NCBI RefSeq assembly: GCF_000013905.1
Contig: NC_007969.1
Coordinates: forward strand, 2,880,001 to 2,912,000
Reading direction: 5' to 3'
Source: Psychrobacter cryohalolentis K5
GTDB taxonomy: Bacteria; Pseudomonadota; Gammaproteobacteria; Pseudomonadales; Moraxellaceae
Length of the DNA stretch: 32,000 nucleotides
Position 1 is the first letter of the stretch. The number at the start of each line of letters is the position of its first letter. The notes below the pieces were generated by a model. It ran no database searches. It was not told the origin of the DNA and saw nothing but the letters and a program-made list of their open reading frames with translations. Below, piece by piece: positions 11,557 through 32,000 of this stretch. The position numbers and the translations under genes are program-made.

Positions 11557-11674
11557 ATCATAACTTCTCTAACAAAATTATGAGTCGCAACAGCTTTCAA
11601 AAGTCCTTTGAATAAACACAGCTGAAGGCTTCGAGAGCATAAACCTAAGCTATTATAAGTAGGTTTTAGAAGAA

Positions 11675-11854
11675 CTATTCTCCTGGTTTGGTATCAATAT
11701 GTGCACCAGGTGGTAGACCTTCTAACAACGGTTCATCAAACGTACCACTTTCTATTTGCTTTGCAATCAAATCACTCTTTTGTTGCTGTTGATTTGGGGT
11801 AAGACTTTCATCATGATTGACTTTATTTCCATTCTCATCATACTCTTCGATCAT
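11675..11854 (-). CDS. small acidic hypothetical protein (59 aa), absent from the supplied ORF track
   Basis: Hand translation of the minus strand gives MIEEYDENGNKVNHDESLTPNQQQQKSDLIAKQIESGTFDEPLLEGLPPGAHIDTKPGE followed by a stop. AAGGA SD lies 8 nt upstream of the ATG at 11854. Confidence 0.35.
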   Translation of the reverse strand: MIEEYDENGNKVNHDESLTPNQQQQKSDLIAKQIESGTFDEPLLEGLPPGAHIDTKPGE

Positions 11855-12226
11855 TGTACTGTCCTTATACTAATTAGATAAGGAAGCAGTATTAGATGAT
11901 AGAAACAATATTTCAAGTGTTTTTTACACTCATCTTCTGATTAATTTTTCAATAGACTGTATTCTTGCAAAAGCACCACTGCTAATAACATAAAACAAAA
12001 TATTAACAATGGCCTATGCGAGACATCTGTTGGATTACATGAAGCAAAAAACTCAAGTGATCTAGTCGCAAAGAAAAATATTCACCCCCAAACCAAGTAC
12101 ATGAATTATGGTCATTTTTTTAGCTCGTTACTGAAGTTTTTTATTCTTTTACTATAGACTGTATGCTCAGATTAAGGCGCATTCAAATAGACAAATATTT
12201 ATTTTAGATACATGTGAGTAAGAAAG

Positions 12227-15094: not shown

Positions 15095-15247
15095 GCAATA
15101 TCTCAGTATTACAACCTGTTACTTAATCAGTTCATTATATTAATCGTCAAAAACTATTAGGTTTTTAGGTTAAGGCAAGAAAGTAACAGGAACGCTATGC
15201 ACAAAAAAGTGCTCACGGTTATGATACTCGGCAATATGACAAGGCTC

Positions 15248-15277
15248 AGGCATTGATTAATCATCAATGCCTTTTTT
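15248..15277 (+). terminator. rho-independent terminator
   Basis: AGGCATTGAT-taatc-ATCAATGCCT 10-bp stem followed by T6, about 155 nt after the helicase stop. Confidence 0.75.
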
Positions 15278-15674
15278 AAAGATTTTCCTAAATACGAATT
15301 GATTATAGAATAGTTTTAATAAACTAAATCCTGATTGGCTTATTATTATTTTCAACTTAAAAAAAGACTATTTTTACCGTACAGGCCTTATTAAATAAGG
15401 ATTTCAGCCTCTCTCTAGATAAAGGTGTATTTTTATATTTATAACGTTTTTTAGTAAAATACCTAGACTTAGATAATTAACACCTACAGAAGATTGATTG
15501 AAATTTACCTGTGCAAAAATACAGATAATTGTATTGAAGTTTATTGTTTAGGGATGTTTGTTAATAGTGAGTATAATTCTTTTACTCTAACTTGATAGCT
15601 AGATTCACCTTCTGGCTTTAGACCATGACGCTAATGTAAAGTCATAAAAATTTCAGAGAAATATAAGGATAAAC

Positions 15675-17534
15675 ATGAAGATTGATGCAGATGTCTTTAG
15701 TATTCAAGAGCTTGAAAAATACTATTTTGTAGTTCCAGACTATCAAAGGGAATATGTCTGGGAAGCAGATAAACATATTTATCAGTTTTTAGTTGATATA
15801 GACGAAGAATTTGAAGCCAATTCTCACGATCAACAAAGCTATTTTATCGGCTCAATCATTGTTGTAAAAAAAGACAGTAAATACGATGTCATTGACGGTC
15901 AACAACGTTTAACGACTATTGTCATTAGCTTATGTGCAATGCGTAATATCCTAGAAGACTTACAAAAAAAGGGGCAGCTTACTGACATGAGCAGTAGCAT
16001 CCTAGATATTATAAAAGGTTGGCTCTTTAAGTTTGACTTGAAGACTAAGTCTACACTTTCTCGCCTTGAGCTACAGTATGATGAAAGCAATGGGTACTTA
16101 GAAACTATAATCCAAAAAAAGACATATGAAGGTGAAATAACTAATTCAATCCAAAAGATGCAAAAAGCATATAATCGTATTTTTAAACATCTACAAGACT
16201 ACTTAAATCAAGGGGTAGAGCGTTTCGAGGAATATACCCAATATTTTTTAACGAATGTTAACGTTGTCGTAATTGAATCGGATAACCTAGGTAGCGCGCT
16301 TAAAATATTTGAGACGATTAACCAACGTGGCGCTGGTCTAAATGCAATGGATTTAGTTAAGAACCTGATGTTTAGTAAAGCTAATGCTGACGACTTTGAA
16401 ACTATCAAAACCAAGTGGAAGCAAATTACTAATGATCTCCAAGCTTGTGATGAAGGGGATAAACCGTTACGTTTTTTAAGATACTTTATGATTGCACGTT
16501 ATCATAATGGCATCATTCGTGAAGATGATTTGTACTCGTGGATCATATCTAAAGAAGGTAAGGATAAACTACAGTATGAGACCAAGCCGCTAAACTTAGT
16601 GAATGAAATGGCTATAGCAGCTAAACGTTACAGCCATTTAGTACAAGCCACAAATAGCGATAGCAGTAATATAGGTATTAATAAATACCCTAATGTAGTC
16701 AAGATTGGTTATATAAACAAACAACGCTCACGTCAGCATTTAATGTTATTGATGGCATTGGACTTGAATTGTAATGACGATGTAGTTAACTATTTAGCTC
16801 AGCAAATCGAAAGCTTCTTATTTTTCTCTAATACTCTTAAGATTCAAACTAACAGTTATGAGAGGCGTTTTACAGACTGGGCTATAAAATTACGCGGAAA
16901 GCGTAATATAGAGGAAGTCGTAAACCTTGTTGATGAAGCTGTCATACCCTTTCTAAGAGGCTATTTATCTGACTTCAAAAATAGTTTTTTGCAGATAAGA
17001 CACTATGACTATAATCCACAATATCGAGAGCGCTATATTTTAGGTTGCCTAAATACTGAACTATGCAAACAAGCGGGACTAACTCCGCTTAGTCAAGACA
17101 ACATACAAAAGCTTCAAATTGAACACATTCTCCCACAAACCTTAATTAATTTAGATGCAAGTGATGAGTTTGGCGAAGAAGAACGCGACAAATATACCTT
17201 CATGCTGGGTAATACCACTTTACTTGAGAGTCAAATCAATCAAGCTATTAACAATTGCAACGATCTGTCCACTGATTGGTTTGGAATGAAGCAAGCAGAG
17301 TATATACACTCCAATTTTGTGCTGACTAAATTATTAAATGATCAATATGCTATTGGCAAAAATACTGGTCTGAATCGCCTAAAGAATAAGCTAAACTGCC
17401 AGTTTGATGAATGGACTAAGACGTCAATTGAGCAAAGACAGCAAATGCTAATGGAGCTAGCCTTTGATCACTGGCAGCTTAATGGCAAGCGTTTAGATGA
17501 GTATGACAGAGCAAGTACTGTAAATAATATATAG
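15675..17534 (+). CDS. GmrSD/BrxU-like type IV (modification-dependent) restriction enzyme, DUF262 + DUF1524
   Basis: N-terminal DUF262 hallmarks DYQREYVW and DGQQRLTT. C-terminal His-Me finger of DUF1524: LQIEHILPQ ... GNTTLLESQINQAINN. Confidence 0.85.
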   Translation: MKIDADVFSIQELEKYYFVVPDYQREYVWEADKHIYQFLVDIDEEFEANSHDQQSYFIGSIIVVKKDSKYDVIDGQQRLTTIVISLCAMRNILEDLQKKGQLTDMSSSILDIIKGWLFKFDLKTKSTLSRLELQYDESNGYLETIIQKKTYEGEITNSIQKMQKAYNRIFKHLQDYLNQGVERFEEYTQYFLTNVNVVVIESDNLGSALKIFETINQRGAGLNAMDLVKNLMFSKANADDFETIKTKWKQITNDLQACDEGDKPLRFLRYFMIARYHNGIIREDDLYSWIISKEGKDKLQYETKPLNLVNEMAIAAKRYSHLVQATNSDSSNIGINKYPNVVKIGYINKQRSRQHLMLLMALDLNCNDDVVNYLAQQIESFLFFSNTLKIQTNSYERRFTDWAIKLRGKRNIEEVVNLVDEAVIPFLRGYLSDFKNSFLQIRHYDYNPQYRERYILGCLNTELCKQAGLTPLSQDNIQKLQIEHILPQTLINLDASDEFGEEERDKYTFMLGNTTLLESQINQAINNCNDLSTDWFGMKQAEYIHSNFVLTKLLNDQYAIGKNTGLNRLKNKLNCQFDEWTKTSIEQRQQMLMELAFDHWQLNGKRLDEYDRASTVNNI

Positions 17535-18454: not shown

Positions 18455-21400
18455 TTAAGCGCTCATTCTATAAACACTATCATTACCACCACGGTAGCTG
18501 GCAAAGATATGCTGATAGACATCTGTTGCTTTAGTATCAACATCTTCATCACTATATGATTCAATAGGTAAGTGCAACATATTCTCATGAATAACGATCT
18601 TAACTTGAGCGATTACTTCACGACTTTCTCGCCAACGCTCGATACTTAACTTTTCTACTTTTAATTTATCTAACGTATCCTTAGCGACTTTTTTAACTTT
18701 TTTAACATCTTCATTGTTTAGCTCTTTTCCTTTAGTTAATAAATCGAAAATTGCCAACACTTCTTGATCGCCTAGATTTTCTCTTACAGCTCTCTGCTCT
18801 TCAACAGATAGATCTCTAACAAAATCGTTTAGATCATCGAAAGCTTTCACTGTATTCTCTAGAGACTTACCAGCATTGTAAGCATCAATGATCTCTTTAT
18901 AACGCTCATAGAACTCAATCCTTAAAGGATTCTCCTTTAACATTTGCTCCAGCTTATTTTCAATGATCTGTTGAAGCGTATATGTCATAGTATTTTTTTG
19001 ATCAGACTTTGCGAAAGCAGCTTTCAGCTTGTCAAAATCCAAGTTACTTAAGTCAATATAAACACCATCTACATTATGACTCTGTTTTACGCTAATGCTA
19101 TCGCTCACTAAACTTTGTAGCTTCTTCATCACTTCAGTGATATCTGCTGATTTGGCTTTTTTATTGAGCTGCTTATAAATAGCCTCGATAGCATTATGAT
19201 CTTTAGTATGAGACTTGGCTTGTGGCTCAGGAAAGAGGGCTTTGTATTTTCTAAAAACATTCTGCGCCATAACCTCAAAAGTTGCTCGGCTTGTCTCATT
19301 TAAGCACACACAGTTTTCTGCTTCTTGTAATTTGCTAATTCTAAGCATTGGACTGGCATTCTTGAGAGATTCAAGATCAAAGCCCAACGATCCAAGATGC
19401 TTGATGGTTTCTTCAATAGCAATTTTCAGCTCTACCTCTAACTCAGATAATTCAGGGATTGGCTTTTCAGGACCTGTTCCTTTACCACCTCCACCAGTAC
19501 CACCTTCACCATATACAGAATATGCTTTTTCTAACTGCTCATAGACATTACCGTAATCAACAATTAAGCCATTCTCTTTCTCATCGTCATAGACACGGTT
19601 CGCCCTTGCAATGGTCTGCATTAGAGTATGACCTTTGATAGGCTTATCTAGATATACGGTAGATACACACTGTGCATCAAAGCCTGTGATCCACATTGCA
19701 CAGACAATCGCTAAACGAAATGGATTATCAGGATCTTTAAATTCCTTTTCTAGGTCTCGCTCAACCATCTTCTTACGATGGGTAGCAACGTCTAATCCAA
19801 GCTTTTTAAACTTATCAACTTCATTCTGCTCGCCACTGACCACCACACACACTTCAGTTTCAGTGACTCGATTAAATTTCCTTCCTAGCTCTTGAGCCTC
19901 TTGAACATCTTCTGCATTATCAATACGCTTTTGTAGCTCAATTAGGTATTCACCCCAATAGCGCTTAATAAGATCATACATACGTACAGCTGTAGGCTTA
20001 TCGAGAGCGACAAGCATCGCCTTACCCTGATAACCACGTTCATTGAAGTGCCATACTAAATCTTTGGCAATAGTCTCTAATCGGGATTGTGCCGTGAGTA
20101 TCGGATAGTTTCTACTAAACTTATGAATAAGCTTCTGTCTTTGATCTTCGGTTAGATCTTCATTCTCTAAAACTTCAGCCATTTCTTCATCAAGCTTTGG
20201 ATTATCGATGTTAAGCAGCTCTCCTTTATTAAGATAACGAAGAGGCAAAGTCGCCCCATCTTCAACAGCACGTTTAAAGTCATAAACAGACACATAGTCA
20301 CCAAATATATCTTTGGTCAGCTCTTCTTCGTCTTTGATAATCGGCGTACCTGTAAAGCCCAAATACGACGCATTAGGTAAACCATAAAACCGCATATTGC
20401 GTGCATAAGTACCACCTTGTGTACGATGAGCTTCATCCGATATCACAATGACGTTCTTACGATTAGTTATTAATGGATATTCGCTCTCTTTATTTGGGTC
20501 AATAGAGAACTTATGAATCAGGGTAAATATGTATCTATGGTTTTCCGATAGTAGCTCTCGCAAGTGCTCGCGCCCTGTCATTCCTGACTTTTTACCTGCA
20601 ATTAATTCTTTTTTATTAACGACGCCAACGCCTGAAAAAGTATCATAGATCTGACTTTCTAACTCGCTTCTATCAACTACCAATAAGAAGGTATAAGACC
20701 CTCCCATCTTCCGATGGATTTTCTCGCATAAGAAAACCATTGAGTAAGACTTACCACTGCCTTGAGTGTGCCAAAACACACCAAGCTTGCCCTGCAAATC
20801 TTCAATATTATCGACTTGATCGATGACTTTATTAACGCCAATATATTGGTGATTTTTTGCCATCAGCTTAACGACTTCACCATAGGAGGTGTCGAACAAT
20901 AGAAAGTTCTCAAAAATATCCATTAAGCGTTTTGGGTCACAAGTACCACGAATCATGGTATCTAAGCTAACTACCCCTTCTGCATCTTCCTCAATACGCT
21001 TCCAATCAAGGAAGTACTTATAAGGGCTGGTTACCGTTCCTACTTTAGACTCTGTACCATTACTAAGGATAACGAAGCCGTTGCAATGAAAAATAGCAGG
21101 GATGGTATCTTTATAATCAGTAAAGTTATCATCATAAGCGTGACGCAGATCCTGATGATGAGCTTTTAACTCAAAGAACACTAGCGGAATGCCATTAACA
21201 AAACCCACTATATCAGGGCGACGGTTATATAGATCTCCAACCACTTCTAATTGGCTTACCGCCAAAAAGCTATTATTGCTATAGTCTTGATAATCAAAGA
21301 CCTTTAGATCGCGCTCTTCAAGTTCATTATCGCTATTAGTGAATTTAACAGGGACACCATCTTTTAGCAGCTTATACTTTTCTTGGTTGATCTTACCAAG

Positions 21401-21658
21401 CGTTTTATCTGCCGTTTTTTGAGTAATGATGTCGATAGCTTGCTGATAAGCGGTATCAGGCAAGCCAGGATTTAGGGTAACCAAAGCATGGCTTAACTCA
21501 CGAGTGAGAATGACCTCTGATCTATTCTCTCTTCCAAGTAGACCGTCCTTACCAAAGGTTTCTTTTTTCCAAGCTGTTACGACTTCCCAGCCAAGCTCAA
21601 TTAATACGTCTTTGGTCGCTTCCTCAACCATGCCATCTTCTGAATATTCGTAGCTCAT
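18455..21658 (-). CDS. hsdR: type I restriction enzyme R subunit
   Basis: N-terminal PD-(D/E)xK (RPDIVGFVNGIPLVFFELKA). SF2 motor motifs HTQGSGKS (Walker A), SDEAHR (DEAH) and QTIARANR. Long helical C-terminal region. Last gene of the hsdM-hsdS-hsdR order. Confidence 0.95.
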   Translation of the reverse strand: MSYEYSEDGMVEEATKDVLIELGWEVVTAWKKETFGKDGLLGRENRSEVILTRELSHALVTLNPGLPDTAYQQAIDIITQKTADKTLGKINQEKYKLLKDGVPVKFTNSDNELEERDLKVFDYQDYSNNSFLAVSQLEVVGDLYNRRPDIVGFVNGIPLVFFELKAHHQDLRHAYDDNFTDYKDTIPAIFHCNGFVILSNGTESKVGTVTSPYKYFLDWKRIEEDAEGVVSLDTMIRGTCDPKRLMDIFENFLLFDTSYGEVVKLMAKNHQYIGVNKVIDQVDNIEDLQGKLGVFWHTQGSGKSYSMVFLCEKIHRKMGGSYTFLLVVDRSELESQIYDTFSGVGVVNKKELIAGKKSGMTGREHLRELLSENHRYIFTLIHKFSIDPNKESEYPLITNRKNVIVISDEAHRTQGGTYARNMRFYGLPNASYLGFTGTPIIKDEEELTKDIFGDYVSVYDFKRAVEDGATLPLRYLNKGELLNIDNPKLDEEMAEVLENEDLTEDQRQKLIHKFSRNYPILTAQSRLETIAKDLVWHFNERGYQGKAMLVALDKPTAVRMYDLIKRYWGEYLIELQKRIDNAEDVQEAQELGRKFNRVTETEVCVVVSGEQNEVDKFKKLGLDVATHRKKMVERDLEKEFKDPDNPFRLAIVCAMWITGFDAQCVSTVYLDKPIKGHTLMQTIARANRVYDDEKENGLIVDYGNVYEQLEKAYSVYGEGGTGGGGKGTGPEKPIPELSELEVELKIAIEETIKHLGSLGFDLESLKNASPMLRISKLQEAENCVCLNETSRATFEVMAQNVFRKYKALFPEPQAKSHTKDHNAIEAIYKQLNKKAKSADITEVMKKLQSLVSDSISVKQSHNVDGVYIDLSNLDFDKLKAAFAKSDQKNTMTYTLQQIIENKLEQMLKENPLRIEFYERYKEIIDAYNAGKSLENTVKAFDDLNDFVRDLSVEEQRAVRENLGDQEVLAIFDLLTKGKELNNEDVKKVKKVAKDTLDKLKVEKLSIERWRESREVIAQVKIVIHENMLHLPIESYSDEDVDTKATDVYQHIFASYRGGNDSVYRMSA

Positions 21659-21692: not shown

Positions 21693-22934
21693 TTATACTT
21701 CGATAATACCCATCATCAGACGTGGTAAGAGAATGTCTCGGGCTTCTTGTAAAAGCTGATTTTGCTGATGTAATTTATATTTTAGTTCAAATATAGGTTG
21801 AACAATTTCGTCAAATTTTTTTATAAGCGGCTCTTGTGGGAAAAAATCCTGAAATCTTCTAATAAATGACAAACTGTAAAATTTCTGAGCAACCCCTGAT
21901 GACTGATTATCTAACTTTATCTTGTTTATAGGATTAGTTAAGTAACAATACAGAAAAGAATCAAAACAATTCTTTTTCTTAAAAATAACCACGTTTTTAC
22001 AGCTATATTCAAAATCTTCTGTTACTACACCAATATTTCCTAACGTACCAATATTCGAAAATAATATATCCCCTTTTTCGATACCACTTCTTTTTCTAAT
22101 TTTTTCATGATCTTCTATGCTTATTTGATAAGCTGATTCAAAATCAATAATGCCTTTATTAAGGTGTTTCCCAGTAACTAAGTAGCATCCATGATTTACT
22201 TGCTTGGGTGAGTCATGAGTACCATCTGTAATTTTTGAACATAAATAATCTAACCCTTTTTTCTCCCAACCCTCTGGCAAACCTGTCTCTGCATCAATTT
22301 GTGTGTTCTCATAATTTGGAAATTTCTTACGTACGAACCATTCTTCATAGATGAGCTGTGCTTGCTCTTCTAATAGCTCAATACGTCTTATATTATTTTC
22401 GATTAAGTCATAATAGGCTGATAAGATGCTAGCAATTTTTTGTTGGGTTGGTAGTGGTGGAAGATGAATTTTGATACTACCTATATCTCCATTGCTTATA
22501 TTCGCTTGGTTTCCAGCACCTTTGGCACGCAATCCTACATTTTGAAAAAAATAATCTGTTGTTAAGAAGTAATATAAAAAATTATGATCGCAGATCTTAT
22601 CTTTTACTTTGAATTTTCCAACACGCTGATTAAGTAAAAGTTTTTCTTTGTGCCTTGATTTAGCGACTCTTCCAACTGCTGATGAAGGAAGTGTTATATG
22701 TGAACCAGTCATAGCAATTACAAAGTCATCATATTGAATATGATACTTTTCGTTTAACTTTAAAAAATCTTTATCAACGAAGTCTCCATTATCAATGACA
22801 AGCATTTTGTCTTTTAGACTTTTAATCTTAATAATAGGTACACCTGAACTGATAAAATCTTTTGATTTGAAAGCATAGCCATTAATAATTTTAGCAACGT
22901 CATCTATAGTATATTCTCTCCAGTCTTCCTTCAT
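21693..22934 (-). CDS. hsdS: type I restriction enzyme S (specificity) subunit, two TRDs
   Basis: Two variable TRDs are separated by a conserved central helix (LPPLPTQQKIASILSAYYDLIENNIRRIELLEEQAQLIYEEWF) and followed by a C-terminal helix (QQNQLLQEARDILLPRLM). The start overlaps the hsdM stop by 4 nt. Confidence 0.9.
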   Translation of the reverse strand: MKEDWREYTIDDVAKIINGYAFKSKDFISSGVPIIKIKSLKDKMLVIDNGDFVDKDFLKLNEKYHIQYDDFVIAMTGSHITLPSSAVGRVAKSRHKEKLLLNQRVGKFKVKDKICDHNFLYYFLTTDYFFQNVGLRAKGAGNQANISNGDIGSIKIHLPPLPTQQKIASILSAYYDLIENNIRRIELLEEQAQLIYEEWFVRKKFPNYENTQIDAETGLPEGWEKKGLDYLCSKITDGTHDSPKQVNHGCYLVTGKHLNKGIIDFESAYQISIEDHEKIRKRSGIEKGDILFSNIGTLGNIGVVTEDFEYSCKNVVIFKKKNCFDSFLYCYLTNPINKIKLDNQSSGVAQKFYSLSFIRRFQDFFPQEPLIKKFDEIVQPIFELKYKLHQQNQLLQEARDILLPRLMMGIIEV

Positions 22935-24511
22935 AGTTCAACTCCTTGAATCTTTTTCATAAGCTCAGCTGCTTCTTTATTTAGACTGCTAAGCTCTGAG
23001 CGGATCTCAGTCATACGCCCTTTATAGTCAAAATCCATATCAATATCGATATTTACGCCCACATAGCGCCCTGGCGTTAAACTATAGTCTTGCTCTTTTA
23101 GAGCATCAAGATCCACTACTTTGCATAGTCCTTCGACATCCGTATACGTGCCATCAGGGAAATGCTCAGTGAACCACTCATTGTCTTTACTAACGCCAAG
23201 CTCATCGCCGCGAAAAGCATTAATTAGCGCTGTTAGACCCTCTAATTGATCCTCACTGAAATCTTGAATCGTGCTACTGACTTTACGATAAGTGTTACGC
23301 GCATCGATCATCAAGATTTTGTCTTTATTTTCCGCCTTCTTTTCTTTATTAAAGAACCAAACGTGACACGGTAGTGATCGGGTATAAAAGAAATTATTAG
23401 CGATAGAGACGATACACTCGACATCGCCTGTCTCTATCAACTGCTGACGTATAAGCTTTTCAGCATGACCTGCGTCAGTCGCTGATGATGCCATAACGAA
23501 TCCTGCGCGCCCAGTCTTATTCAGATAACTGTGGAAATACTGAATCCACAAATAGTTGCCATTACCGATCGTACCGCCTTTGGTCAAAGGTGCGCCAAAC
23601 GGCAAGCGAGCGTCTTCTGTGAGAAATTTATTTTTCCCATCGATACCACTTACGTTAAATGGCGGGTTTGCCATGACAAAATCGCACTTACCATTGAGAT
23701 CATGCGGGTTAGTATAAAAACTATTACTCTCTATTATTGCCCCTTCGATACCATGAACAGCAAGGTTCATCTTAGCAAGCTTAGTATTATTACTTTTAAG
23801 CTCTGTACCATAGACCGTAATAGCCTCGTTAACACTCTTGTTTGGCATATGGCCTTGTATGAAATGAGCCGTCTGTACAAACATGCCACCGGAGCCACAG
23901 GCAGGATCATGAATAATGCCATGATCAGGTTGAATGAAATTGACAATCAGATTGACCAGTGATGGCGGTGTGAAGAATTCGCCACCCTCTTGTGCACCAG
24001 CACCTTGCATAGAGAACTTCATCAGGAAGAATTCATAAATACGACCGAAGATATCACCCTTAGCTTTTCTTACCGCATCTTTGTTAAATACACGCACCAA
24101 GTCGCGTAATAGCTTATTATCAAAGACTTGGTAGTTTTTGGGAAGTATACCTACTAATGAGGGATACTCTTCCTCGATGAGTTTCATCGCGTTATTGATT
24201 GCCTCAGCGATATTTTCGCTTTCAGGTAATGCAGCTAAATAATCATATTTGGCTTTTTCAGGTAGTAGAATCGATCCTGCAGCTACGAAGTCGTCTTTGG
24301 TCACCTCGCGCTTTTGACCAGTACGAGGATTGATTGCTAATGACTCTTGAATTTTAACCTTAGCATCTTCATGGCGATTTTGTACAAATCGTAAAAACAC
24401 TAAACCTAGTAAAGGATCTTTATATTCAGCAGCGGTAAGGGTTGAGTTGGCACGCAGGTTGTCAGCCGCGTTCCATAGATCACTTTCGAGTTGTTTGATT
24501 GAAATATCCAT
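22931..24511 (-). CDS. hsdM: type I restriction enzyme M subunit (N6-adenine DNA methyltransferase)
   Basis: HsdM_N-like N-terminus (LWNAADNLRANSTLTAAEYKDPLLGLVFLRF). GEFFTPPSLV. Motif I DPACGSGGMF. Motif IV NPPFN. Confidence 0.95.
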   Translation of the reverse strand: MDISIKQLESDLWNAADNLRANSTLTAAEYKDPLLGLVFLRFVQNRHEDAKVKIQESLAINPRTGQKREVTKDDFVAAGSILLPEKAKYDYLAALPESENIAEAINNAMKLIEEEYPSLVGILPKNYQVFDNKLLRDLVRVFNKDAVRKAKGDIFGRIYEFFLMKFSMQGAGAQEGGEFFTPPSLVNLIVNFIQPDHGIIHDPACGSGGMFVQTAHFIQGHMPNKSVNEAITVYGTELKSNNTKLAKMNLAVHGIEGAIIESNSFYTNPHDLNGKCDFVMANPPFNVSGIDGKNKFLTEDARLPFGAPLTKGGTIGNGNYLWIQYFHSYLNKTGRAGFVMASSATDAGHAEKLIRQQLIETGDVECIVSIANNFFYTRSLPCHVWFFNKEKKAENKDKILMIDARNTYRKVSSTIQDFSEDQLEGLTALINAFRGDELGVSKDNEWFTEHFPDGTYTDVEGLCKVVDLDALKEQDYSLTPGRYVGVNIDIDMDFDYKGRMTEIRSELSSLNKEAAELMKKIQGVEL

Positions 24512-24568: not shown

Positions 24569-26371
24569 CTATAAACTCCAAAGCTCACTTTGTATCGCAT
24601 ATTGCTCTGATAGCAGCTTTTGAATAGCTTTTTGTGTTTCTCTGCTTTTATCTATACATGCAATTGCCTGCTCTCGCTCTTCTAAAGACGGTACTATAAC
24701 AGGTATCTGCTTGAGCTCTTTTAATGAAATATTGGGTATAGTAGCCCCTTTAATCAGACCAGAGATTTGAGTTTGCCCGATATCTGATTTTAGATAAGCG
24801 TATAAAACCTTTGGGTTCACTTTGTCAGAAATTGTCCTTATTACTATCGCTGATCGATTTACCATCCAACATCTATCGCCTGTCGTTGGAACATCTTCAG
24901 GCACGATACCAAGCTTACCAGCACTACCTTTTAGGATGAAAATAATATCATTCGGCTGTAAAAAACCTGTTTGGTTCTTCGCACGTTCTGACTCTGATAT
25001 ATTGGCTTCTTTGGTTGGTACAGAGATGTCACCAATGTCATTTAGTTCGCTAGCGCCTACCTCTAAGACAGTATAGTCACCTTCGTCTGGCTTAACAGAC
25101 AATCCACGCTCAAAACGAACGATCCTATCAAGAGTGACTGTCGTTGACTCGCTAAGGATTTTATTGACTCTCTTTTCCTTTGGATCTAGAAGGTAACGCC
25201 CGACACTCAGATCATAGTCGTTTTTTTGGATGAGCGATGATGATACTGAGGTTGCGCAATCTAATTCTTTATCAGAGGCTAGATACTCTAAAATAATATC
25301 GATATTGCTTAAGCTTAGTAATCGCTTGGTGGTCTTTTCAATAAACTCTTCACCAGTTACGTCTATAAATCTTACCGATTGATTATTACCATTTGGCTCA
25401 ATGAGTAATAATGATGTCTTTACAGCAGTCCCTGTCCAGATTCCTGAAGGTAGAGATATCACTGCTTTAAGCATACCCTGATCAACTAAATACTGCCTCA
25501 GATCTTTCTCCATAGTAGAGTATAAGAATCCTTCAGGAACAGATACAACAACGGTTCCACGACATTGTTTAATCAAATGTAAGATATTAGCTGATTCAAC
25601 TTTCTTAGTCGGTATAATAAATCTATCGTAGCTATCGATATTATCAGAAATATGCTTTGGCACCATTACGCCCATCGGTGAAAAACTAACACCATGATCA
25701 AACGTCTTGAGTTCATTTTTTGATGTTATGTAAGCAGGCTTATCCAATGCATTAGAATATGATACCTCAAAGCTATTTTTGCTCATCAACGATAAAGCAT
25801 CTGCTATCATTCCTGACTGATTTATTGTTTCATAGCAAACACCTTCAGACTCCTCGCTAGCTATAATAGCTAAAGGAAGTGAAGCTGGTGACATTAGATA
25901 GGTCGTTTTACCACTTTTATCCCCTAATAATGCATTTGCTAGCAGGTATACGCTGAAGTCTGCAAAACCCTCACTAGTGGAGGAGGTAAAGTTTGAAATG
26001 ATCGTTCTGATCGAATCAACTGCTGGGCTTTCTAGAGTGATATCCTGATACTTCAATAAAGTACTTATTGCGCTGTGAATAAATGGCAGTGGAAGATCCT
26101 CTAGAGCATTATCATATGAGAAAACCCGCTGTATCTGGCTATCCTCACTTGCTTTAAGAGCGTCTATAAGCGCTAACCACTCGCCTTTATACTCCGCTAA
26201 ACTTTGACTTAGCTTTAAACCATTCGGAAGCTTGTCTTCTTTTGACAACACCAAGATTGTTATTAGCTTTAATGCGACTTCATTTTCATTGTGTTTTCTA
26301 ATGCCATGTGAGCGCATAAGATCATAAAAACTCCAGACCAGACTCTGAACGTTTTGGGTATTTTTTTGCAT
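24569..26371 (-). CDS. HsdM-like methyltransferase-fold protein with degenerate catalytic motifs, fused to a single HsdS-type target recognition domain
   Basis: By-eye alignment to the adjacent HsdM. DPACGSGGMF corresponds to SPASLPLAII (aa 161-170, nt ~25868-25894). FVMANPPFNV corresponds to HGVSFSPMGV (aa 226-235, nt 25667-25696). The post-catalytic block is retained: VVVSVPEGFLYS...LRQYLVDQGMLKAVISLPSGIWTGTAVKTSLLLIEP. The C-terminal aa ~405-600 has a Methylase_S pattern: NDIIFILKGSAGKLGIV...LYAYLKSDIGQTQISGLIKGATIPNISLKELKQIPVIVPSLEEREQAI. Confidence 0.7.
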   Translation of the reverse strand: MQKNTQNVQSLVWSFYDLMRSHGIRKHNENEVALKLITILVLSKEDKLPNGLKLSQSLAEYKGEWLALIDALKASEDSQIQRVFSYDNALEDLPLPFIHSAISTLLKYQDITLESPAVDSIRTIISNFTSSTSEGFADFSVYLLANALLGDKSGKTTYLMSPASLPLAIIASEESEGVCYETINQSGMIADALSLMSKNSFEVSYSNALDKPAYITSKNELKTFDHGVSFSPMGVMVPKHISDNIDSYDRFIIPTKKVESANILHLIKQCRGTVVVSVPEGFLYSTMEKDLRQYLVDQGMLKAVISLPSGIWTGTAVKTSLLLIEPNGNNQSVRFIDVTGEEFIEKTTKRLLSLSNIDIILEYLASDKELDCATSVSSSLIQKNDYDLSVGRYLLDPKEKRVNKILSESTTVTLDRIVRFERGLSVKPDEGDYTVLEVGASELNDIGDISVPTKEANISESERAKNQTGFLQPNDIIFILKGSAGKLGIVPEDVPTTGDRCWMVNRSAIVIRTISDKVNPKVLYAYLKSDIGQTQISGLIKGATIPNISLKELKQIPVIVPSLEEREQAIACIDKSRETQKAIQKLLSEQYAIQSELWSL

Positions 26372-26597: not shown

Positions 26598-26779
26598 CTT
26601 ACTCTCTCCTTTTTACACGCTAGAAGAAACTCGAATTCTACGAGTAGTTCTTTTGCACGTCTTTTATTTACAATGACCTTATCTCCGTCTACTTCTCCGA
26701 AAGCCATAACAATATCTAGTTCGGCTTTACCTATAGCACGTTGACTCATCCTTGATACTAAATGCGTTGAAGCTTTCAT
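26594..26779 (-). CDS. small hypothetical protein (61 aa), first gene of the minus-strand hsd operon
   Basis: AAGGAA SD lies 7 nt upstream. HLVSRMSQRAIGKAELDIV resembles the N-terminal H-x3-R-x3-R-x-I motif of DUF4258-type (BECR-fold) small toxins (weak, from memory). Confidence 0.5.
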   Translation of the reverse strand: MKASTHLVSRMSQRAIGKAELDIVMAFGEVDGDKVIVNKRRAKELLVEFEFLLACKKERVR

Positions 26780-26813: not shown

Positions 26814-26842
26814 ATTAAACCATAGAAACTCAGTGGTGTAAA
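26814..26842 (-). promoter_or_regulatory. putative sigma70 promoter of the six-gene minus-strand operon
   Basis: On the minus strand: TTTACA (26842-26837), 17-nt spacer, TTTAAT (26819-26814), about 35 nt upstream of the ATG at 26779. Sequence match only. Confidence 0.3.
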
Positions 26843-27178
26843 TAGTATTGATATAATATTTTTATATTAATGTTGGTATTTTAAAGATATTAGTGATTTT
26901 ATTGGATTTACCATTAGCTATTAAGCTATGTAATAAAGTGAGTTGCTTAGATCAAGAGAGGCTATATTTGAACAAGTCGATCACTTATTAATGAACGAAA
27001 CAAAGTAAAATAGATAGTAATTAAAATAATAGGAGAGCTCACAGAAAGTGAGTAGGAGATATTGTTATAGCTTTACAGCTAGAAAGTGACAACTGACACT
27101 GCAAGTCCAGCGACTGAGCGTTTGAGGAATAAAATATGCTAAAGAGCTTACGTGTTAAGTAGCTCAATAATGTAAATC

Positions 27179-27598
27179 TTATTCATACTTAGAGAGCTTA
27201 GGATTTAACAATAATAAAGGTAGACCTTCGGGAGTAACATATACCACCGCATTTTGTAGGTAGCTACAACACAGGTTGATACTTGTTTGTTCATCTATCG
27301 GAAAAGCAAAGAAACTATTCTCTCTCCACGATTCGTCAGGATTTTCACCATAGCCGTCAACGACATTAAAGCCTCGACTAAGCAGCTCATTCTTTAAACC
27401 TTCATTTGCTAACTCATTAGTTGTAAGATCTAGATATTCGCCCATAGGGTTCCAAGCCGTGATAAATAAGCCACCACTTCGTATAAATGGCTTTAAAATC
27501 AACTCTGCTTTAGCAGATGGCTTATCAATATTTAATACGACATCACCAAAACAATAATGAGTTTGTTGGTAGGCTTCTAAAAGGGACTGGCTTAACAT
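27179..27598 (-). CDS. DUF3293 domain protein
   Basis: LLEAYQQTHYCF..., ...LFITAWNP..., ...SWRENSFFAF... and ...YLQNAVVYV match the conserved blocks of DUF3293 as I recall them. No obvious SD. Confidence 0.55.
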   Translation of the reverse strand: MLSQSLLEAYQQTHYCFGDVVLNIDKPSAKAELILKPFIRSGGLFITAWNPMGEYLDLTTNELANEGLKNELLSRGFNVVDGYGENPDESWRENSFFAFPIDEQTSINLCCSYLQNAVVYVTPEGLPLLLLNPKLSKYE

Positions 27599-27946: not shown

Positions 27947-28102
27947 ATTTAACTTAGCACTAGTGCCTCATGATAGTGATGCTAATAGGCACTATTATGA
28001 TTCATTGATTTTTAATGCAGCCAAATAAATCGATATAACTAAAACCAAAATAATAAACTTTTTTTCTGAAAAACTTTATATTAAAAATTGGAAGTTTTAA
28101 AT

Positions 28103-29563
28103 ATGTCACTGACTATAGATAGTCCGCCAAATGCGGCGGCACTTATGCACTCTTTGCGAGATATTGGATATGAGTTAGATACAGCTTTGGCAGACATTAT
28201 TGACAATAGTATTACTGCAGGAGCAAGCGAGGTCCACATTACTTTTGAGACGGATCCCGTAACTAAGGTTGCTATCTTAGATAATGGTGATGGCATGAGT
28301 CGGGATGAACTCATAAAGGCGATGACGATTGGATCAAAAAGCCCTCTAATTGAGCGCTCTACTAAAGACTTAGGAAGATTTGGTCTAGGTTTAAAAACAG
28401 CTTCTTTCTCACAGTGTAAACGTTTAACAGTAGTTACTAGACAGTTTGATCAGACGTGGGCAATGTGTTGGGATTTGGATCAAGTCACTAAATCTAATTG
28501 CTGGGATTTAATACAGCTTGGCGATGACGCGATGGTAGAGATCTATCAGTTCGATCAACTGGAAGACACAGGTACTTTAGTAGTCTGGGAGATTTGTGAC
28601 CGTCTGCAAGGTGACGGAAATCGCAGCAATGATAACCATGTATTGCAAAAGTTTGATAATGCCGAAAAATATCTAGGACTGATATTTCACCGGTTTTTAG
28701 ATAAGTCACCAAGTTCTGTATCGAATTTAGACATTGTTATTAACGGTAGAGCAATTAGCTACGTGGACCCCTTCTTTCGCCATAAACCTGCCACTCAGGT
28801 CCACAACCTTGAAACTATCAAATATAAAGACGTATACATTAAGGTGCAAGGCTATACCCTACCCCACCATACAAAATGTACCAAAGAAGAGTATGACAAA
28901 TATTCTTTAGGTAGCTATCGAGATAGCCAAGGATTCTACGTATATCGAGCTAATAGACTTCTTATAGCAGGTGATTGGTTTCGATTAGCTGCAAAATCAG
29001 ACTTAACCTCTCTAACACGAATCGAAATTGATCTACCTAATAACTTTGATAGTGAATGGCATATTGATATTAAAAAATCACATGCCAAGCCACCTGAGCA
29101 AATGCGAGATCAACTTAAGCAATATATCGACACCTATATTCAAGGATCTAAACGTGTTTATAACTCTAAAGGTTATAGACACAAAGGAGATGTCACCCCA
29201 CTTTGGCATCAATATACCAATAAAAATTTACGCTCTTATCAAATTAATAAAGACTATCCATTAATTTCACAGTTTATGGAAGGTTTAGATGTTAGGCAAA
29301 CAAGTCAGCTTAAACAGATACTTATTTTAATTGAGGAAAGTTTCCCAGTTGACCAGTTGTATGTGGACTACGCTTCTTCTCCCAAAGAGTTTAAAACCAA
29401 ACACACCGATGAAGAACTTGAGGAGCTAGCGCTCAGTTATCTTGAAAATTTTTCTAATATTGGGTTTGAGATAAGCGATATAACACTTCTTTTAGAAAAA
29501 AATGCACCTTTTAGTGATTACAGCAGAGACTGGGAAAGCTATCTAAAAACATCAAAGGAATAA
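28103..29563 (+). CDS. GHKL-superfamily ATPase (HATPase_c_3 / MORC-MutL-like)
   Basis: N box DIIDNSITAGA, G1 box ILDNGDGMS, G2 box GRFGLGLKTAS. The ORF track starts at a TTG (28088). I prefer the ATG at 28103, with GGAAG 8 nt upstream. Confidence 0.8.
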   Translation: MSLTIDSPPNAAALMHSLRDIGYELDTALADIIDNSITAGASEVHITFETDPVTKVAILDNGDGMSRDELIKAMTIGSKSPLIERSTKDLGRFGLGLKTASFSQCKRLTVVTRQFDQTWAMCWDLDQVTKSNCWDLIQLGDDAMVEIYQFDQLEDTGTLVVWEICDRLQGDGNRSNDNHVLQKFDNAEKYLGLIFHRFLDKSPSSVSNLDIVINGRAISYVDPFFRHKPATQVHNLETIKYKDVYIKVQGYTLPHHTKCTKEEYDKYSLGSYRDSQGFYVYRANRLLIAGDWFRLAAKSDLTSLTRIEIDLPNNFDSEWHIDIKKSHAKPPEQMRDQLKQYIDTYIQGSKRVYNSKGYRHKGDVTPLWHQYTNKNLRSYQINKDYPLISQFMEGLDVRQTSQLKQILILIEESFPVDQLYVDYASSPKEFKTKHTDEELEELALSYLENFSNIGFEISDITLLLEKNAPFSDYSRDWESYLKTSKE

Positions 29564-29566
29564 ATC

Positions 29567-32000
29567 ATGAATACGGATATGATTAATCTCATTTACAGTA
29601 TCAGTGTTAAATTGCTAGAGCTGAACACTAATTTGAGTGTTTCTGAAGCAGTAAGTGAAGCTATGAGCACATTTAATATAGATCAAATGAGCGAGCTGGA
29701 TGTTTTCAATAATATCGTAAATAATTTAAATCTCTTTCGTAATACTAAGCAAGAGAATGCTCACGTATTGGATGATCAAGAAATCACGCCTTGGCTGCAT
29801 ACGGTCTCTAGTGATAAATATTATAGCGACCGCTATTACACCTATCTACAAAATGAAGAACGATTACCCGCAAGAGTCGTTGATGTCATGAAGCGCACTA
29901 ATGAAGATATTTTAGAGCGATTAGGTAACCCAAATATAGATACGCCTTTCAAAAGGCAAGGTTTAGTAGTAGGAAATGTACAGTCGGGAAAAACGGCGAA
30001 TTATCTATCATTGATAAACTTGGCAGCTGATTATGACTATAAGTTAATTATCCTGATTACTGGCATTCACAATAACTTAAGATCACAAACTCAAAAGCGG
30101 GTTAATAAAGGATTTATAGGTGTCAACAGTGAGGAGCAAAAACTTACAGGAGTTGGGGTTACTAATAACCCAGTGCTTGATAAAGAAATTAAAGCGAAAC
30201 AGCCACACTGTTTAACAAGCTTAACTGAAGACTTTAGCGGAAAAATTCGTAAGACAACGGCAGTTCGATTGGAGAACGCTAAGAACCCAGTCATCATGGT
30301 CATTAAGAAAAACCATCATACTTTAGGTAATGTGATTAAATGGCTGAGAAATAATGAACAGGGTCAACGCTTTATTAACGAGCCTGTACTAATTATTGAC
30401 GATGAAGCAGACAATGCTTCAATTAATACCAGTAAACATCCAAATGAGACGACAAAAATTAATGGGCAAATAAGAGAGACTTTTAACTTGTTTCGTCAGG
30501 GTTCTTATATCGGTTACACAGCCACCCCATTTGCGAATATATTTATAGATCCTGCCAACCACGATGAAGCTTTGGCAGACGATTTGTTTCCTAAGCATTT
30601 TATTTTTACGCTTGTACCACCATCGAATTATCTAGGCCCAGCCCAGTTTTTCTTAGGAGAAGATGGTGAGCCTAATTACGACTCTCCTTACGTAGAGTTC
30701 ATCCAAGATAATGAAGATAGTATCCCGTTAAAAAAACCTAAAGACTTTGTTCTTACTGAACTTCCTAAAAGTTTGACTTTGGCGCTCTATGAGTACTTGG
30801 TAACTATCGTTATTAAAAGTGTACGCTCAGTTAGTAATAAACATACATCAATGCTGATCAATATATCTCATAAAACTCAAGAGCAAGCTGACGCACAATA
30901 TCTAGTTAGCCAAACGTTAGAAGAAATCAGACTAGCGGTAAAATTTCATGGTGCTAAACCACAGCAAGAGCGTCTGAAAAACCCACATTTAGAGGGCTTG
31001 TACCGCAAGTTCTTACCTCACTTAAATAAACAGAACGTTGATGAGCTTTTTACTCAGCTACAAAAAGTCATCGATTCAGTTAAAGTAAGAGTAATAAATA
31101 GTGAGAGTAAAGATAAATTAGATTACGATAATTATGAGAACGGTCTAAATGTCATTGCTATCGGTGGATACAGTCTATCACGTGGATTTACTCTAGAAGG
31201 ATTAACTATAAGCTACCTAATACGTAATACCGCCATGGCAGATACGTTATTGCAGATGGGACGATGGTTTGGCTACCGTGAACAGTATGATGATCTCTGT
31301 AAGCTATATATTCCTGACGCTTCATTCGAATGGTATGCATTCATTGCTCAATCTATTGAAGAATTGCGCTCAGAGTTTTCTATTATGGAACAAAATGGTC
31401 TGACGCCAGCAGAGTTTGGTTTAAAAGTTAGAACTAGTAATACTGGGCTATTAATTACTGCACGCAACAAAATGCATCATACAGAGGCTGTTACGCTATC
31501 AGAAAGCTTTTCTGAAGAAGCTTTTACACTTCGTGGTATTGCACTAAACAATTTACTTAGTCAACGTAAATTATTTACTGATTTTGCGCTTAAATCTGCT
31601 GATTTATATGGCTTTAAGCCAGTTTACAACTATGTTAGAGCAGAAAACGATAAGCAATTTCATTTGATTCAAAAAGTTGGCATTGACGAGGTTATCAACC
31701 TACTCAATGAGTATGAGCATTCAATCGATGATAATGGCAGGAAAGAGGCGCTGATATCCTATATTGAAGAACGAGAGGATGAGTTGGCAACTTGGGATAT
31801 TGCAATTCATAAAAGTTATTTAGGTGAAAACGCACTATCTCAGGTTCGTACTTTTGCAAAATCTTGCTATCACTCAGATCATGTCAAAACAGCTGACGGT
31901 GGTGGTCGTATTTTAAGACCATGGGAAGAAGCTTTTGGCTTAACAGATGAGCAGTACGCAAGTGCAGAACAACAAAAAGAGAAATCGAAAGTTAAACAAA
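29567..32000 (+). CDS. Z1-domain protein (P-loop/DEAD-like ATPase N-terminal region + Z1 domain), 3' end outside the window
   Basis: Not in the ORF track because it is open-ended. My hand translation from the ATG at 29567 (3 nt after the upstream stop) shows no stop through 31999. Walker A GNVQSGKTANY (nt ~29972). Walker B IIDDEADNAS. TATPFAN. Z1 hallmark GGYSLSRGFTLEGL...LLQMGRWFGYR (nt ~31252-31278). Confidence 0.8.
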   Translation, partial: MNTDMINLIYSISVKLLELNTNLSVSEAVSEAMSTFNIDQMSELDVFNNIVNNLNLFRNTKQENAHVLDDQEITPWLHTVSSDKYYSDRYYTYLQNEERLPARVVDVMKRTNEDILERLGNPNIDTPFKRQGLVVGNVQSGKTANYLSLINLAADYDYKLIILITGIHNNLRSQTQKRVNKGFIGVNSEEQKLTGVGVTNNPVLDKEIKAKQPHCLTSLTEDFSGKIRKTTAVRLENAKNPVIMVIKKNHHTLGNVIKWLRNNEQGQRFINEPVLIIDDEADNASINTSKHPNETTKINGQIRETFNLFRQGSYIGYTATPFANIFIDPANHDEALADDLFPKHFIFTLVPPSNYLGPAQFFLGEDGEPNYDSPYVEFIQDNEDSIPLKKPKDFVLTELPKSLTLALYEYLVTIVIKSVRSVSNKHTSMLINISHKTQEQADAQYLVSQTLEEIRLAVKFHGAKPQQERLKNPHLEGLYRKFLPHLNKQNVDELFTQLQKVIDSVKVRVINSESKDKLDYDNYENGLNVIAIGGYSLSRGFTLEGLTISYLIRNTAMADTLLQMGRWFGYREQYDDLCKLYIPDASFEWYAFIAQSIEELRSEFSIMEQNGLTPAEFGLKVRTSNTGLLITARNKMHHTEAVTLSESFSEEAFTLRGIALNNLLSQRKLFTDFALKSADLYGFKPVYNYVRAENDKQFHLIQKVGIDEVINLLNEYEHSIDDNGRKEALISYIEEREDELATWDIAIHKSYLGENALSQVRTFAKSCYHSDHVKTADGGGRILRPWEEAFGLTDEQYASAEQQKEKSKVKQ

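Follow-up and report, generated by a model that had tools for sequence, protein, structure and literature searches.

The 32,000-nucleotide stretch of Psychrobacter cryohalolentis K5 analyzed here (NC_007969.1, positions 2,880,001 to 2,912,000 of the forward strand; hereafter the window) contains a complete type I restriction-modification (R-M) system with hsdM, hsdS and hsdR, and directly upstream of it a gene, here called X. By profile alignment and structure prediction, the product of X has the fold of a type I methyltransferase (MTase) of the fused M-S1/2 form, but lacks the glycine loop that binds S-adenosylmethionine (SAM) and the N/D of catalytic motif IV. Two small genes upstream of X, sm1 and sm2, together encode what looks like a naturally split putative toxin of the DUF4258 family. 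Across loci from many phyla, we observe that X and DUF4258 form a portable module placed at the 5' end of R-M operons that are unrelated to one another, and that the two co-evolve with each other but not with the R-M system they adjoin.

Architecture and motifs of X

The X gene is an uninterrupted open reading frame (ORF) that ends 57 bp before the start of hsdM on the same strand, followed by hsdS and hsdR, and its extent agrees with that given in an earlier note on this DNA (Table 1). Pfam N6_Mtase matches residues 198-398 of X (E 9e-22), and since this match spans only positions 104-307 of the 311-position profile, the N-terminal, SAM-binding part of the profile remains unmatched. Methylase_S matches residues 430-571 (E 7e-11). 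Pfam PF12161 (HsdM_N) gave no match on X, although profile and structure alignments reach into the HsdM N-domain, so the HsdM_N-like N-terminus proposed in the earlier note stands at the level of these alignments but not at that of the Pfam family. A profile of the broad family aligns to solved HsdM structures with E 1e-35 to 1e-31.

With respect to catalysis, active gamma-class N6-adenine MTases carry a glycine-rich motif I (D/E-P-x-C/M-G-S/T-G-G) and a motif IV of the form (D/N/S)PP(Y/F/W), and X has neither. The profile of the Psychrobacter clade places 'YvaSPASLPL' under 'YDPTCGTGGM' of a solved type I M subunit, with SPASLPL lying under the glycine loop, and the broad-family profile places 'vYlpwdssgq' under 'VYDPACGTGG' and 'afpPl' under 'ANPPF' of solved HsdM. 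At motif IV, hmmalign assigns FSPM of X and NPPF of the window HsdM to the same four columns. The loss of both signatures, which had been read from the sequence by eye as SPASLPLAII and FSPM, is thereby borne out, as is the reading of the C-terminal ~200 residues as one target recognition domain (TRD) with its helix, given the Methylase_S match and a predicted helix at residues 563-599.

An AlphaFold2 (AF2) model of X, built on a 36-sequence alignment (pLDDT 87, pTM 0.76), begins with a helical N-domain, which is followed by a Rossmann-like core, the TRD and, at the C-terminus, a long helix; the overall HsdM fold, a helical N-domain plus Rossmann core, is thus indicated by both the N6_Mtase match (PF02384, E 9e-22) and Foldseek. 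The best Foldseek match of the model is 7EEW (E 1.7e-21), the 'intact MTase from Vibrio vulnificus YJ016 in complex with the DNA-mimicking Ocr protein' (PDB), whose 638-residue chain is matched by X in the MTase part as well as in the TRD/helix part. Other matches are PacII M1/M2, several HsdM subunits, EcoR124I-ArdA and the EcoKI M2S1-Ocr model, and the match with 3lkd has a TM score of 0.70 and a root-mean-square deviation of 4.1. Because 7EEW and complexes with ArdA and Ocr are among these matches, X appears to be an inactive relative of a naturally occurring M-S1/2 fusion that DNA mimics are documented to target at its DNA groove. The 7EEW enzyme is reported to assemble as a symmetric (M-S1/2)2 dimer resembling M2S1, with Ocr bound in the TRD cleft, and it is said to bind the cofactor product S-adenosylhomocysteine and to be a functional methyltransferase; we know of no DUF4258 partner for it. 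Like 7EEW, X unites in one chain an HsdM-like N-domain, an MTase core, one TRD and a conserved-region helix. Unlike 7EEW, it has degenerate motifs I and IV and is thus predicted to be catalytically incompetent, and the sequence similarity between the two is remote (14% identity in the structural alignment).

An old family under purifying selection

As judged by sequence and profile searches, X is a member of an old, separate family whose homology to HsdM lies at the family and profile level. X is 100% identical to a P. cryohalolentis protein named 'N-6 DNA methylase'. About 75 cluster-level relatives of 596-600 aa, with identities down to 37%, all have degenerate motifs, and an exhaustive profile search of 1.84 billion representatives recovered 479 at E <= 1e-30, mostly of full length (580-610 aa), corresponding to several hundred 50%-identity clusters in many phyla. 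The taxa include Psychrobacter, Moraxella, Aromatoleum, Polynucleobacter, Caballeronia, Geobacter, Sulfuricurvum, and Oscillatoria and other cyanobacteria. A search of an indexed protein database with the broad alignment returned the Psychrobacter clade alone again, and a search of a phage collection with an X-family member gave no match.

Pairwise BLASTP between X and the neighboring HsdM yields only E = 0.028 over 138 residues, which rules out a recent tandem paralogue of hsdM. The block-for-block alignment of the two proteins described in the earlier note therefore holds as homology between families and profiles but not as a pairwise match, and its description of X as a paralogue of the neighboring hsdM gives way, on BLASTP, the family search and the mirror tree described below, to that of a separate old family.

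Motif counts were made over 208 full-length family members. The first position of motif IV is F in 101 of them, followed by I (21), L (18), V (15), M (9), N (8, or 4%) and S (8), with D in none, so that a catalytic D/N/S is found in 16/208; the second proline, at position 3, is kept in 195/208. Any GxG at motif I is found in five members and the glycine loop is absent from the remaining 203, indicating that homologues do not generally retain the canonical motifs; general retention was the outcome that would have turned X into a decaying copy. The motif II-like E181 is nearly invariant. In codon analysis of the Psychrobacter loci, the dN/dS ratio (omega) is 0.13-0.21 for X and 0.08-0.10 for its TRD alone, and the length of X is steady at 596-600 aa in this clade. 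Since motif loss is family-wide and omega is low, catalytic inactivation appears to be ancestral and maintained, with the scaffold under purifying selection, as the earlier idea of a pseudo-methyltransferase under selection had it. A decaying pseudogene is ruled out by dN/dS, constant length and conservation across phyla.

A weaker relative (225 bits) on the Lactococcus cremoris plasmid pJM2A (L018, 7497-9299) heads a locus composed of hsdM, an hsdS shufflon and hsdR that is found on dairy plasmids. It has VPPF at motif IV, with the catalytic N lost, and a motif I region that partly contains glycines, and no DUF4258 ORF was detected upstream of it; this may be a borderline or an independent case.

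A split DUF4258 protein as partner of X

Alignments indicate that sm1 and sm2 are two halves of one genuine two-piece DUF4258 protein. On plasmids of Oscillatoria nigro-viridis and Aromatoleum aromaticum, the M/S homologue is immediately preceded by a gene annotated as DUF4258. By BLASTP, sm1 matches the N-terminal half of the 99-aa Aromatoleum DUF4258 protein (E 1e-8) and sm2 its C-terminal half (E 4e-10), and the concatenation of the two matches it end to end (E 1e-16). The invariant residues H6, R10, Q13 and R14 are carried by sm1 and a KKGGVVVV...LITTYN hairpin by sm2. In the multiple alignment, sm1 and sm2 are colinear with the single-chain proteins and the split falls in a variable helical linker, which in the AF2 model of a single-chain relative (pLDDT 87), a soluble alpha/beta protein, forms a long helix between two beta-hairpins. 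The two small genes, which the earlier note had linked to X together with the R-M locus, are thus coupled to it as supposed, with the refinement that they represent a single split DUF4258 putative toxin.

The assignment to DUF4258 (PF14076) is carried by the family more than by the window protein. The toxin domain is matched by 16/19 partner proteins (best E 5.9e-9), among which the Aromatoleum protein scores 26.2 bits against a gathering cut-off of 25 bits, and a precomputed PF14076 match is present on most of the relatives listed out of a total of 1,168. The sm1 orthologues match in 8/8 cases, weakly (best E 1.3e-4), and the window sm1 alone reaches 16 bits, under the 25-bit cut-off. DUF4258 is classified as a BECR-fold toxin family of the RelE/ParE superfamily and listed among type II toxin-antitoxin (TA) toxins (PMC11980606). 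Neither sm1 nor sm2 has a long hydrophobic stretch in its sequence, and Pfam, PADLOC and NCBIfam detect no ABC-ATPase or HEPN domain in sm1, sm2 or X. Hidden Markov model matches of the small protein to designed armadillo-repeat proteins, at about 8 bits per stretch, were discarded as repeat artefacts.

The split is kept throughout the Psychrobacter clade, including the 37%-identical L010, and is confined to that clade. In the window, the start of sm2 overlaps sm1 by 4 bp and is preceded by its own, strong Shine-Dalgarno sequence (AAGGAGAG); among loci the junction varies between a 4-bp overlap, gaps of 1-2 nt and a 10-nt overlap, with separate start codons. The varying junctions, the separate starts and the Shine-Dalgarno sequence of sm2 rule out a programmed frameshift that would join the two. 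For most comparisons among the Psychrobacter loci, omega is 0.05-0.27 for sm1 and 0.08-0.29 for sm2. We also note a perfect palindrome with a 5-bp stem (ACTCGTAGAATTCGAGT, 26629-26645) within the 3' portion of sm1 and shortly before the ribosome-binding site of sm2; a terminator scan flagged it on both strands, and it might couple or attenuate sm2 translation.

A portable module at the 5' end of unrelated operons

In eight Psychrobacter genomes and one metagenomic contig, the sm1-sm2-X trio occurs without exception and each time adjoins a type I system. The type I partner itself varies: HsdM identity falls from 93% to as low as 22%, and the genes run M-S-R, R-M-S, or again M-S-R in systems of other families. 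A metagenome scan with another X-family clade added 61 loci. Where there is room upstream, a DUF4258-like ORF abuts X in 47/55 loci. Downstream, counting 48 distinct loci with at least 1.5 kb of sequence on that side, hsdM (33) or hsdR (5) lies within 600 bp on the same strand in 38 loci (79%), with a median gap of about 60 bp. The other neighbors of X are an MmeI-family R-M-S fusion, BREX genes (BrxC/D, PglZ, Lhr-like helicase), DUF1156/DUF3883 genes, or nothing recognizable. A reverse search starting from DUF4258 finds a gene for an N6_Mtase protein of ~595 aa directly downstream in 4/4 lineages (Polynucleobacter, Geobacter, Caballeronia and a metagenome), three of which then have hsdMSR. 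The linkage of X to the small genes and to hsdMSR, which had been proposed from the window alone, is therefore seen as conserved synteny across phyla.

A mirror tree based on pairwise identities over 37 loci separates the two associations. Identities of X follow those of DUF4258 (Spearman 0.77, Pearson 0.90) but not those of the adjacent HsdM (Spearman 0.17), and in 38 locus pairs the X proteins are >45% identical while the HsdMs are <30% identical.

Two observations on individual loci stand beside these counts. In Geobacter sulfurreducens subsp. ethanolicus (L083, 12886-14042), an insertion sequence (HTH_Tnp_1 and rve) lies between hsdM and hsdS of the downstream type I system, and the pair of DUF4258 and M/S genes is intact there. 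In Polynucleobacter (L081/L082, 1613-8773), Zorya-like genes (OmpA-like, EH_Signature and SNF2 helicase) are located directly upstream of the module, and since they adjoin it there, the module seems to reside in defense islands of other phyla too.

A constant TRD and a promoter palindrome

Between the window and three related loci (L001-L003), HsdS is 33-63% identical where HsdM and HsdR are 89-96% identical, a pattern that marks the resident type I system, on these identities, as a case of classic TRD swapping in HsdS. In those same loci the TRD of X is 91-95% identical, also where HsdS identity is 33-40%. Family-wide conservation peaks in the TRD (0.50) and declines through the MTase core (0.43) to the N-domain (0.27), whereas genuine S subunits show the opposite. 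This suggests that the TRD of X recognizes something constant. Its lack of co-variation with HsdS argues against X reading the methylation mark of its neighbor, and a role as reader of the adjacent system's mark was ruled out on this ground.

A candidate for such a constant target is found in front of the module. In many unrelated loci, an A-tract and GTA-N5-TAC are situated directly beside a TTGACA-like -35 element upstream of the DUF4258 start (consensus AAAAAAGTA-N5-TACC-NN-TTGACA). The exact GTA-N5-TAC occurs within 150 bp upstream in 22/36 distinct non-Psychrobacter loci (L012, L013, L020, L023-L026, L030, L031, L039, L040, L042-L044, L047, L048, L051, L058, L061, L080, L081 and L085), compared to a shuffle expectation of 1.3 +/- 1.1 (maximum 5 in 500 shuffles) and a background of 0.02 per 150 bp elsewhere in the same loci. 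Its distance to the DUF4258 start is 22-80 nt, and in Aromatoleum two copies of the palindrome flank the -35. Because a two-fold symmetric, bipartite site suits an (M-S1/2)2 body and the TRD is conserved, X may bind this palindrome and autoregulate the module; the conserved palindrome of the broad family thus lends indirect support to the proposed DNA recognition by X.

The window locus differs. GTA-N5-TAC is absent upstream of its sm1; the TATT-N5-AATA element that occupies the analogous position occurs four times in the window versus 2.4 expected, which is not significant, and a strict sigma-70 scan called no promoter at 26815-26842. Since these three checks came out negative, we do not claim an operator for the window locus.

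Comparison with known systems

The closest parallels in logic are Ronin and PrrC. Ronin of E. coli ECOR55 consists of a 61-aa toxin and HsdMS without HsdR, is triggered by Ocr, ArdA or Aop1, is linked to type I/IV composite R-M or BREX, and still caused cell death when motif IV of its HsdM was mutated (F287G; Silas et al., bioRxiv 10.1101/2023.04.06.535777). In both cases the gene for a small protein of ~61 aa immediately precedes genes for recognition proteins of the type I HsdM/HsdS kind, and neither Ronin nor the M-S-only module described here has an HsdR of its own. Methyltransferase activity is dispensable there, as F287G indicates, and the motifs are dead in X. Defense neighbors are of similar kinds, type I/IV or BREX there and type I (plus GmrSD), MmeI-family enzymes and BREX here, and an upstream non-coding region that is functionally required in Ronin has a counterpart in the operator-like palindrome conserved in this family. 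The differences are equally clear: RonA is a predicted transmembrane toxin, whereas the protein here is a soluble member of the DUF4258/BECR family without RonA homology; the HsdM and HsdS of Ronin are separate and motif-intact, whereas X fuses M with half an S and has lost the motifs family-wide; genomes with Ronin mostly lack any HsdR, whereas this module usually heads a complete hsdMSR operon; and Ronin is found mainly in E. coli, whereas this family extends over many phyla.

In PrrC-EcoprrI, an RNase effector encoded in a type I operon is kept latent by the R-M proteins and freed by T4 Stp, and RNase toxins embedded in R-M operons serve, as a general rule, as a second line of defense (PMC3710099; PMC12707154). 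The likeness is that an RNase-type suicide effector, putative in the present case, is encoded in or next to a type I R-M operon, which the module indeed abuts. PrrC itself is an ABC-ATPase-HEPN protein from a type IC operon, silenced by active EcoprrI, whereas the effector here would be a BECR-family protein; because the module brings its own dedicated, inactive M-S sensor, it would be portable between R-M systems, in contrast to PrrC-EcoprrI.

Type II TA modules with DUF4258 share PF14076, tight bicistronic spacing and, in most of the present family, a putative palindromic operator. The reported modules have small antitoxins, e.g., MqsA-type fusions, in antitoxin-toxin order (PMC11980606), whereas here the partner is a 600-residue pseudo-methyltransferase encoded downstream, and the DUF4258 subfamily is distinguished by the long helix between two beta-hairpins at which the Psychrobacter protein is split. 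PARIS (AriA/AriB), like other guardians induced by anti-restriction factors, is reported to sense Ocr-like DNA mimics and to mount an RNA-targeting abortive response (PMC10802264; PMC10802454). It shares the proposed logic of sensing DNA mimics but is built from an ABC ATPase and a TOPRIM nuclease, with no R-M-derived sensor and no obligatory R-M adjacency.

The module would therefore work most like Ronin and PrrC, but its effector is neither a RonA-like transmembrane protein nor an ABC-ATPase-HEPN protein, and its sensor is fused and motif-dead. A prior description of the X-DUF4258 pairing was not found in the literature searched, and PADLOC and NCBIfam hold no model dedicated to X or to the pair; the suspicion that no system of this composition had been described thus agrees with our literature search. 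The module is plausibly of the R-M-linked guardian or decoy kind, with a DUF4258 domain on the effector side and an unprecedented partner, and so far undescribed.

Proposed mechanism and its alternatives

The reading that we favor, tentatively and with rather less than even confidence, is a guardian resembling Ronin and PrrC, in which a dead M-S sensor detects DNA-mimic anti-restriction proteins and unleashes the DUF4258 toxin. X would dimerize into an M2S1-like body, as the V. vulnificus M-S1/2 enzyme reportedly does, and its groove would have two jobs: it would recognize an unchanging palindromic operator in its own promoter (for most of the family, GTA-N5-TAC), and, in the manner of a type II antitoxin, it would restrain the DUF4258 toxin. 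DNA-mimic anti-restriction proteins such as Ocr and ArdA would target exactly this groove, so that a phage disarming a neighboring R-M, BREX or MmeI system would also occupy the X decoy. An occupied decoy would lead to derepression and/or release of the RNase toxin, and the toxin would then halt growth or abort the infection. Type I R-M and BREX are both reported to be inhibited by Ocr (PMC7261183). In its most far-reaching form the proposal is less probable still: a widespread and uncatalogued 'decoy immunity', in which a dead M-S sensor/antitoxin seated on a GTA-N5-TAC operator cages a BECR-fold RNase until mimics displace it and fire the toxin.

Several points weigh against the guardian reading. 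The toxicity of DUF4258, its neutralization by X, and the binding of DNA and of DNA mimics by X are steps that we infer, including the role of X as the binder of GTA-N5-TAC. DUF4258 has no activity or target assigned in the literature (PMC11980606), and the model of the small protein gave no significant Foldseek match in PDB or BFVD, so that its BECR toxin fold stays putative. The small protein has no transmembrane helix and is related neither to RonA nor to PrrC; what it would share with these systems is their logic and not a common origin. DUF4258 is absent beside X in 8/55 loci, some X-DUF4258 pairs stand alone with no adjacent R-M system, and the Psychrobacter clade has a different, AT-rich palindrome instead, which lacks statistical significance. 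Finally, the tight 5' position in R-M operons fits transcriptional control equally well.

Transcriptional control is the core of the first alternative, which we consider unlikely. X would then be a sequence-specific repressor or timer of the restriction operon, analogous to C proteins or RptR, that binds the palindrome of the operon promoter and sets R-M expression, for instance on establishment in a new host, and DUF4258 would be a co-regulator or mRNA-level modulator, not a suicide toxin. A conserved GTA-N5-TAC that abuts the -35, a place at the 5' end with operon-like spacing to hsdM or hsdR in 38/48 loci, and a TRD that is conserved whatever the specificity of the R-M system are all as expected of such a controller, and there are precedents in dedicated repressors of R-M systems and defense islands (PMC12255303) and in MTase-repressor fusions (PMC12707154). 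However, the operator fits both readings, because autoregulation is typical of TA modules too, and pairs also occur without downstream R-M genes. Control of expression moreover leaves unexplained both the obligate, co-evolving partner from a BECR-toxin family and the retention under selection of an HsdM core of ~400 aa merely to place one TRD.

A second alternative is a plain TA or addiction pair, with X as an unusually large antitoxin that neutralizes DUF4258 and autoregulates the operon. Such a pair would stabilize the island or provide generic abortive infection on host shut-off, with no sensing of anti-restriction, and its adjacency to R-M genes would reflect island clustering. DUF4258 is catalogued among type II TA toxin families (PMC11980606), X and DUF4258 are closely linked genes that co-evolve, most of the family carries an operator-like palindrome at the promoter, stand-alone pairs exist, and the locus belongs to a mobile island whose integrase is found at tRNA-Ser. 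We nevertheless regard this explanation as quite improbable: in 79% of loci, from unrelated families and phyla, hsdM or hsdR follows on the same strand after about 60 bp, which is far tighter than clustering, the alternative MmeI-type and BREX neighbors are again N6-adenine-MTase defenses, and the retention of an M2S1-like body in place of a small DNA-binding domain needs explanation.

It is very unlikely that X serves as an alternative specificity or assembly subunit, in which an (M*-S1/2)2 body recruits HsdR to cut a fixed sequence or modified base, or modulates M2S1R2. X is operonic with hsdMSR and retains the HsdM-like N-domain and C-terminal helix, and a hydrophobic residue in place of the catalytic N could, speculatively, suit a modified base. 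The N-domain is, however, the expected contact with the partner and yet the least conserved region (0.27), and the R-M partners come from unrelated families, with HsdM identity down to 22%, differing gene orders and no correlation between the evolution of X and that of HsdM. Restriction without cognate protection would also be self-toxic, and no role would be left for DUF4258. Recruitment of HsdR, which the earlier note had offered as an example, is likewise disfavored by the occurrence of the module beside an MmeI-family enzyme or BREX, or alone, where there is no HsdR, and by its co-evolution with DUF4258 and not with R-M. That X is a still-active methyltransferase with unconventional motifs, or a decaying copy, is hardly credible: the N6_Mtase fold is kept along with core motifs, e.g., the motif II-like E181 and PP in motif IV, and NCBI names X 'N-6 DNA methylase' and its relatives 'type I restriction-modification system subunit M/S', but the glycine loop is absent in 203/208 members and a catalytic D/N/S present in just 16/208, while low omega, constant length and conservation across phyla exclude decay.

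Locus layout and island context

The features of the module and of the adjacent type I system are collected in Table 1.

Table 1. Features of the X-DUF4258 module and the adjoining type I R-M system in the window
Feature	Coordinates	Strand	Basis or remark
X, catalytically degenerate M-S1/2 fusion (predicted pseudo-methyltransferase + one TRD + conserved helix)	24569..26371	-	600 aa, ATG, uninterrupted ORF
Motif I equivalent of X, SPASLPLAII, residues 161-170	25862..25891	-	glycine-rich SAM loop lost
Motif IV equivalent of X, FSPM, residues 230-233	25673..25684	-	catalytic N/D/S replaced by F
Single HsdS-type TRD + C-terminal conserved-region helix of X, residues about 410-600	24569..25144	-	Methylase_S; PDB S-subunit matches; AF2 helix
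sm1, N-terminal half of split DUF4258 (BECR/RelE-superfamily putative toxin), 61 aa	26594..26779	-	PF14076, BLASTP, alignment
sm2, C-terminal half of split DUF4258, 61 aa	26412..26597	-	BLASTP, alignment
hsdM, canonical DPACGSGG + NPPF	22931..24511	-	Pfam HsdM_N + N6_Mtase E 4.5e-75; PADLOC MTase_I 2.7e-208
hsdS, two TRDs	21693..22934	-	Pfam Methylase_S, two stretches
hsdR	18455..21658	-	TIGR00348 1.5e-143; Pfam HSDR_N, SWI2_SNF2, T1R_D3-like
Candidate promoter/operator, TATT-N5-AATA (26846-26858) directly upstream of -35-like TTTACA (26837-26842)	26837..26858	-	positional analogue, low confidence

The whole region is a mobile defense island, with a tRNA-Ser at 2146-2236 and a tyrosine integrase at 2520-3878. 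Just past the integrase, window positions 4001-6000 have a GC content of 0.28-0.31 versus about 0.35-0.46 elsewhere, a low-GC region that covers two ORFs without Pfam matches (3885-4808, minus strand, and 5249-6139, plus strand). The island further contains DUF932, YqaJ and Gp3-like recombination directionality factor genes (within 6635-17534), a leucine-rich repeat protein (10612-11502) and a Zn-ribbon-containing UvrD-like helicase (12227-15094). GmrSD, a type IV enzyme (15675-17534), is encoded convergently with hsdR, and in the Polynucleobacter loci L080-L082 a pairing of type I system and GmrSD is likewise located downstream of the module.

On the other side, a DUF3293 gene (27179-27598, minus strand) lies directly upstream of the module. 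DUF3293 is also directly upstream of the module, on the opposite strand, on the unrelated Campylobacterota plasmid pSULKU03 of Sulfuricurvum (L017, 4456-4863), and it was not seen in L001-L009 by tblastn with window proteins. Its place next to the module could be coincidence or loose association. Beyond it lies the gene for an MzaB-like GHKL ATPase (28088-29563, plus strand; PADLOC MzaB 1.6e-90, NCBIfam MzaB 5e-102, the latter under its cut-off). The next ORF (29564-32000, plus strand) encodes at least 812 aa, includes a GKT P-loop and continues past the end of the window. The two are probably part of an MZA-type defense system adjoining the type I locus.

Implications

Through the labels that genome annotation and defense-finding pipelines now give to X and its relatives, hundreds of lineages are credited with a methyltransferase that is almost certainly unable to methylate, and the assignment of methylomes to genes can be misled by it. 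If the guardian reading is true, decoy sensing, so far known from Ronin in E. coli, would be old, common and built more than once from R-M parts, and DUF4258 would represent a new effector family with its first biological role. X would then illustrate clearly how selection can preserve a large enzyme scaffold for recognition alone, and would be, should it also cage its partner on the operator, the first M2S1-type body serving as a transcription factor or antitoxin. The module as a whole would be a plug-in guardian that moves among unrelated restriction systems, type I, MmeI-type and BREX, across phyla.

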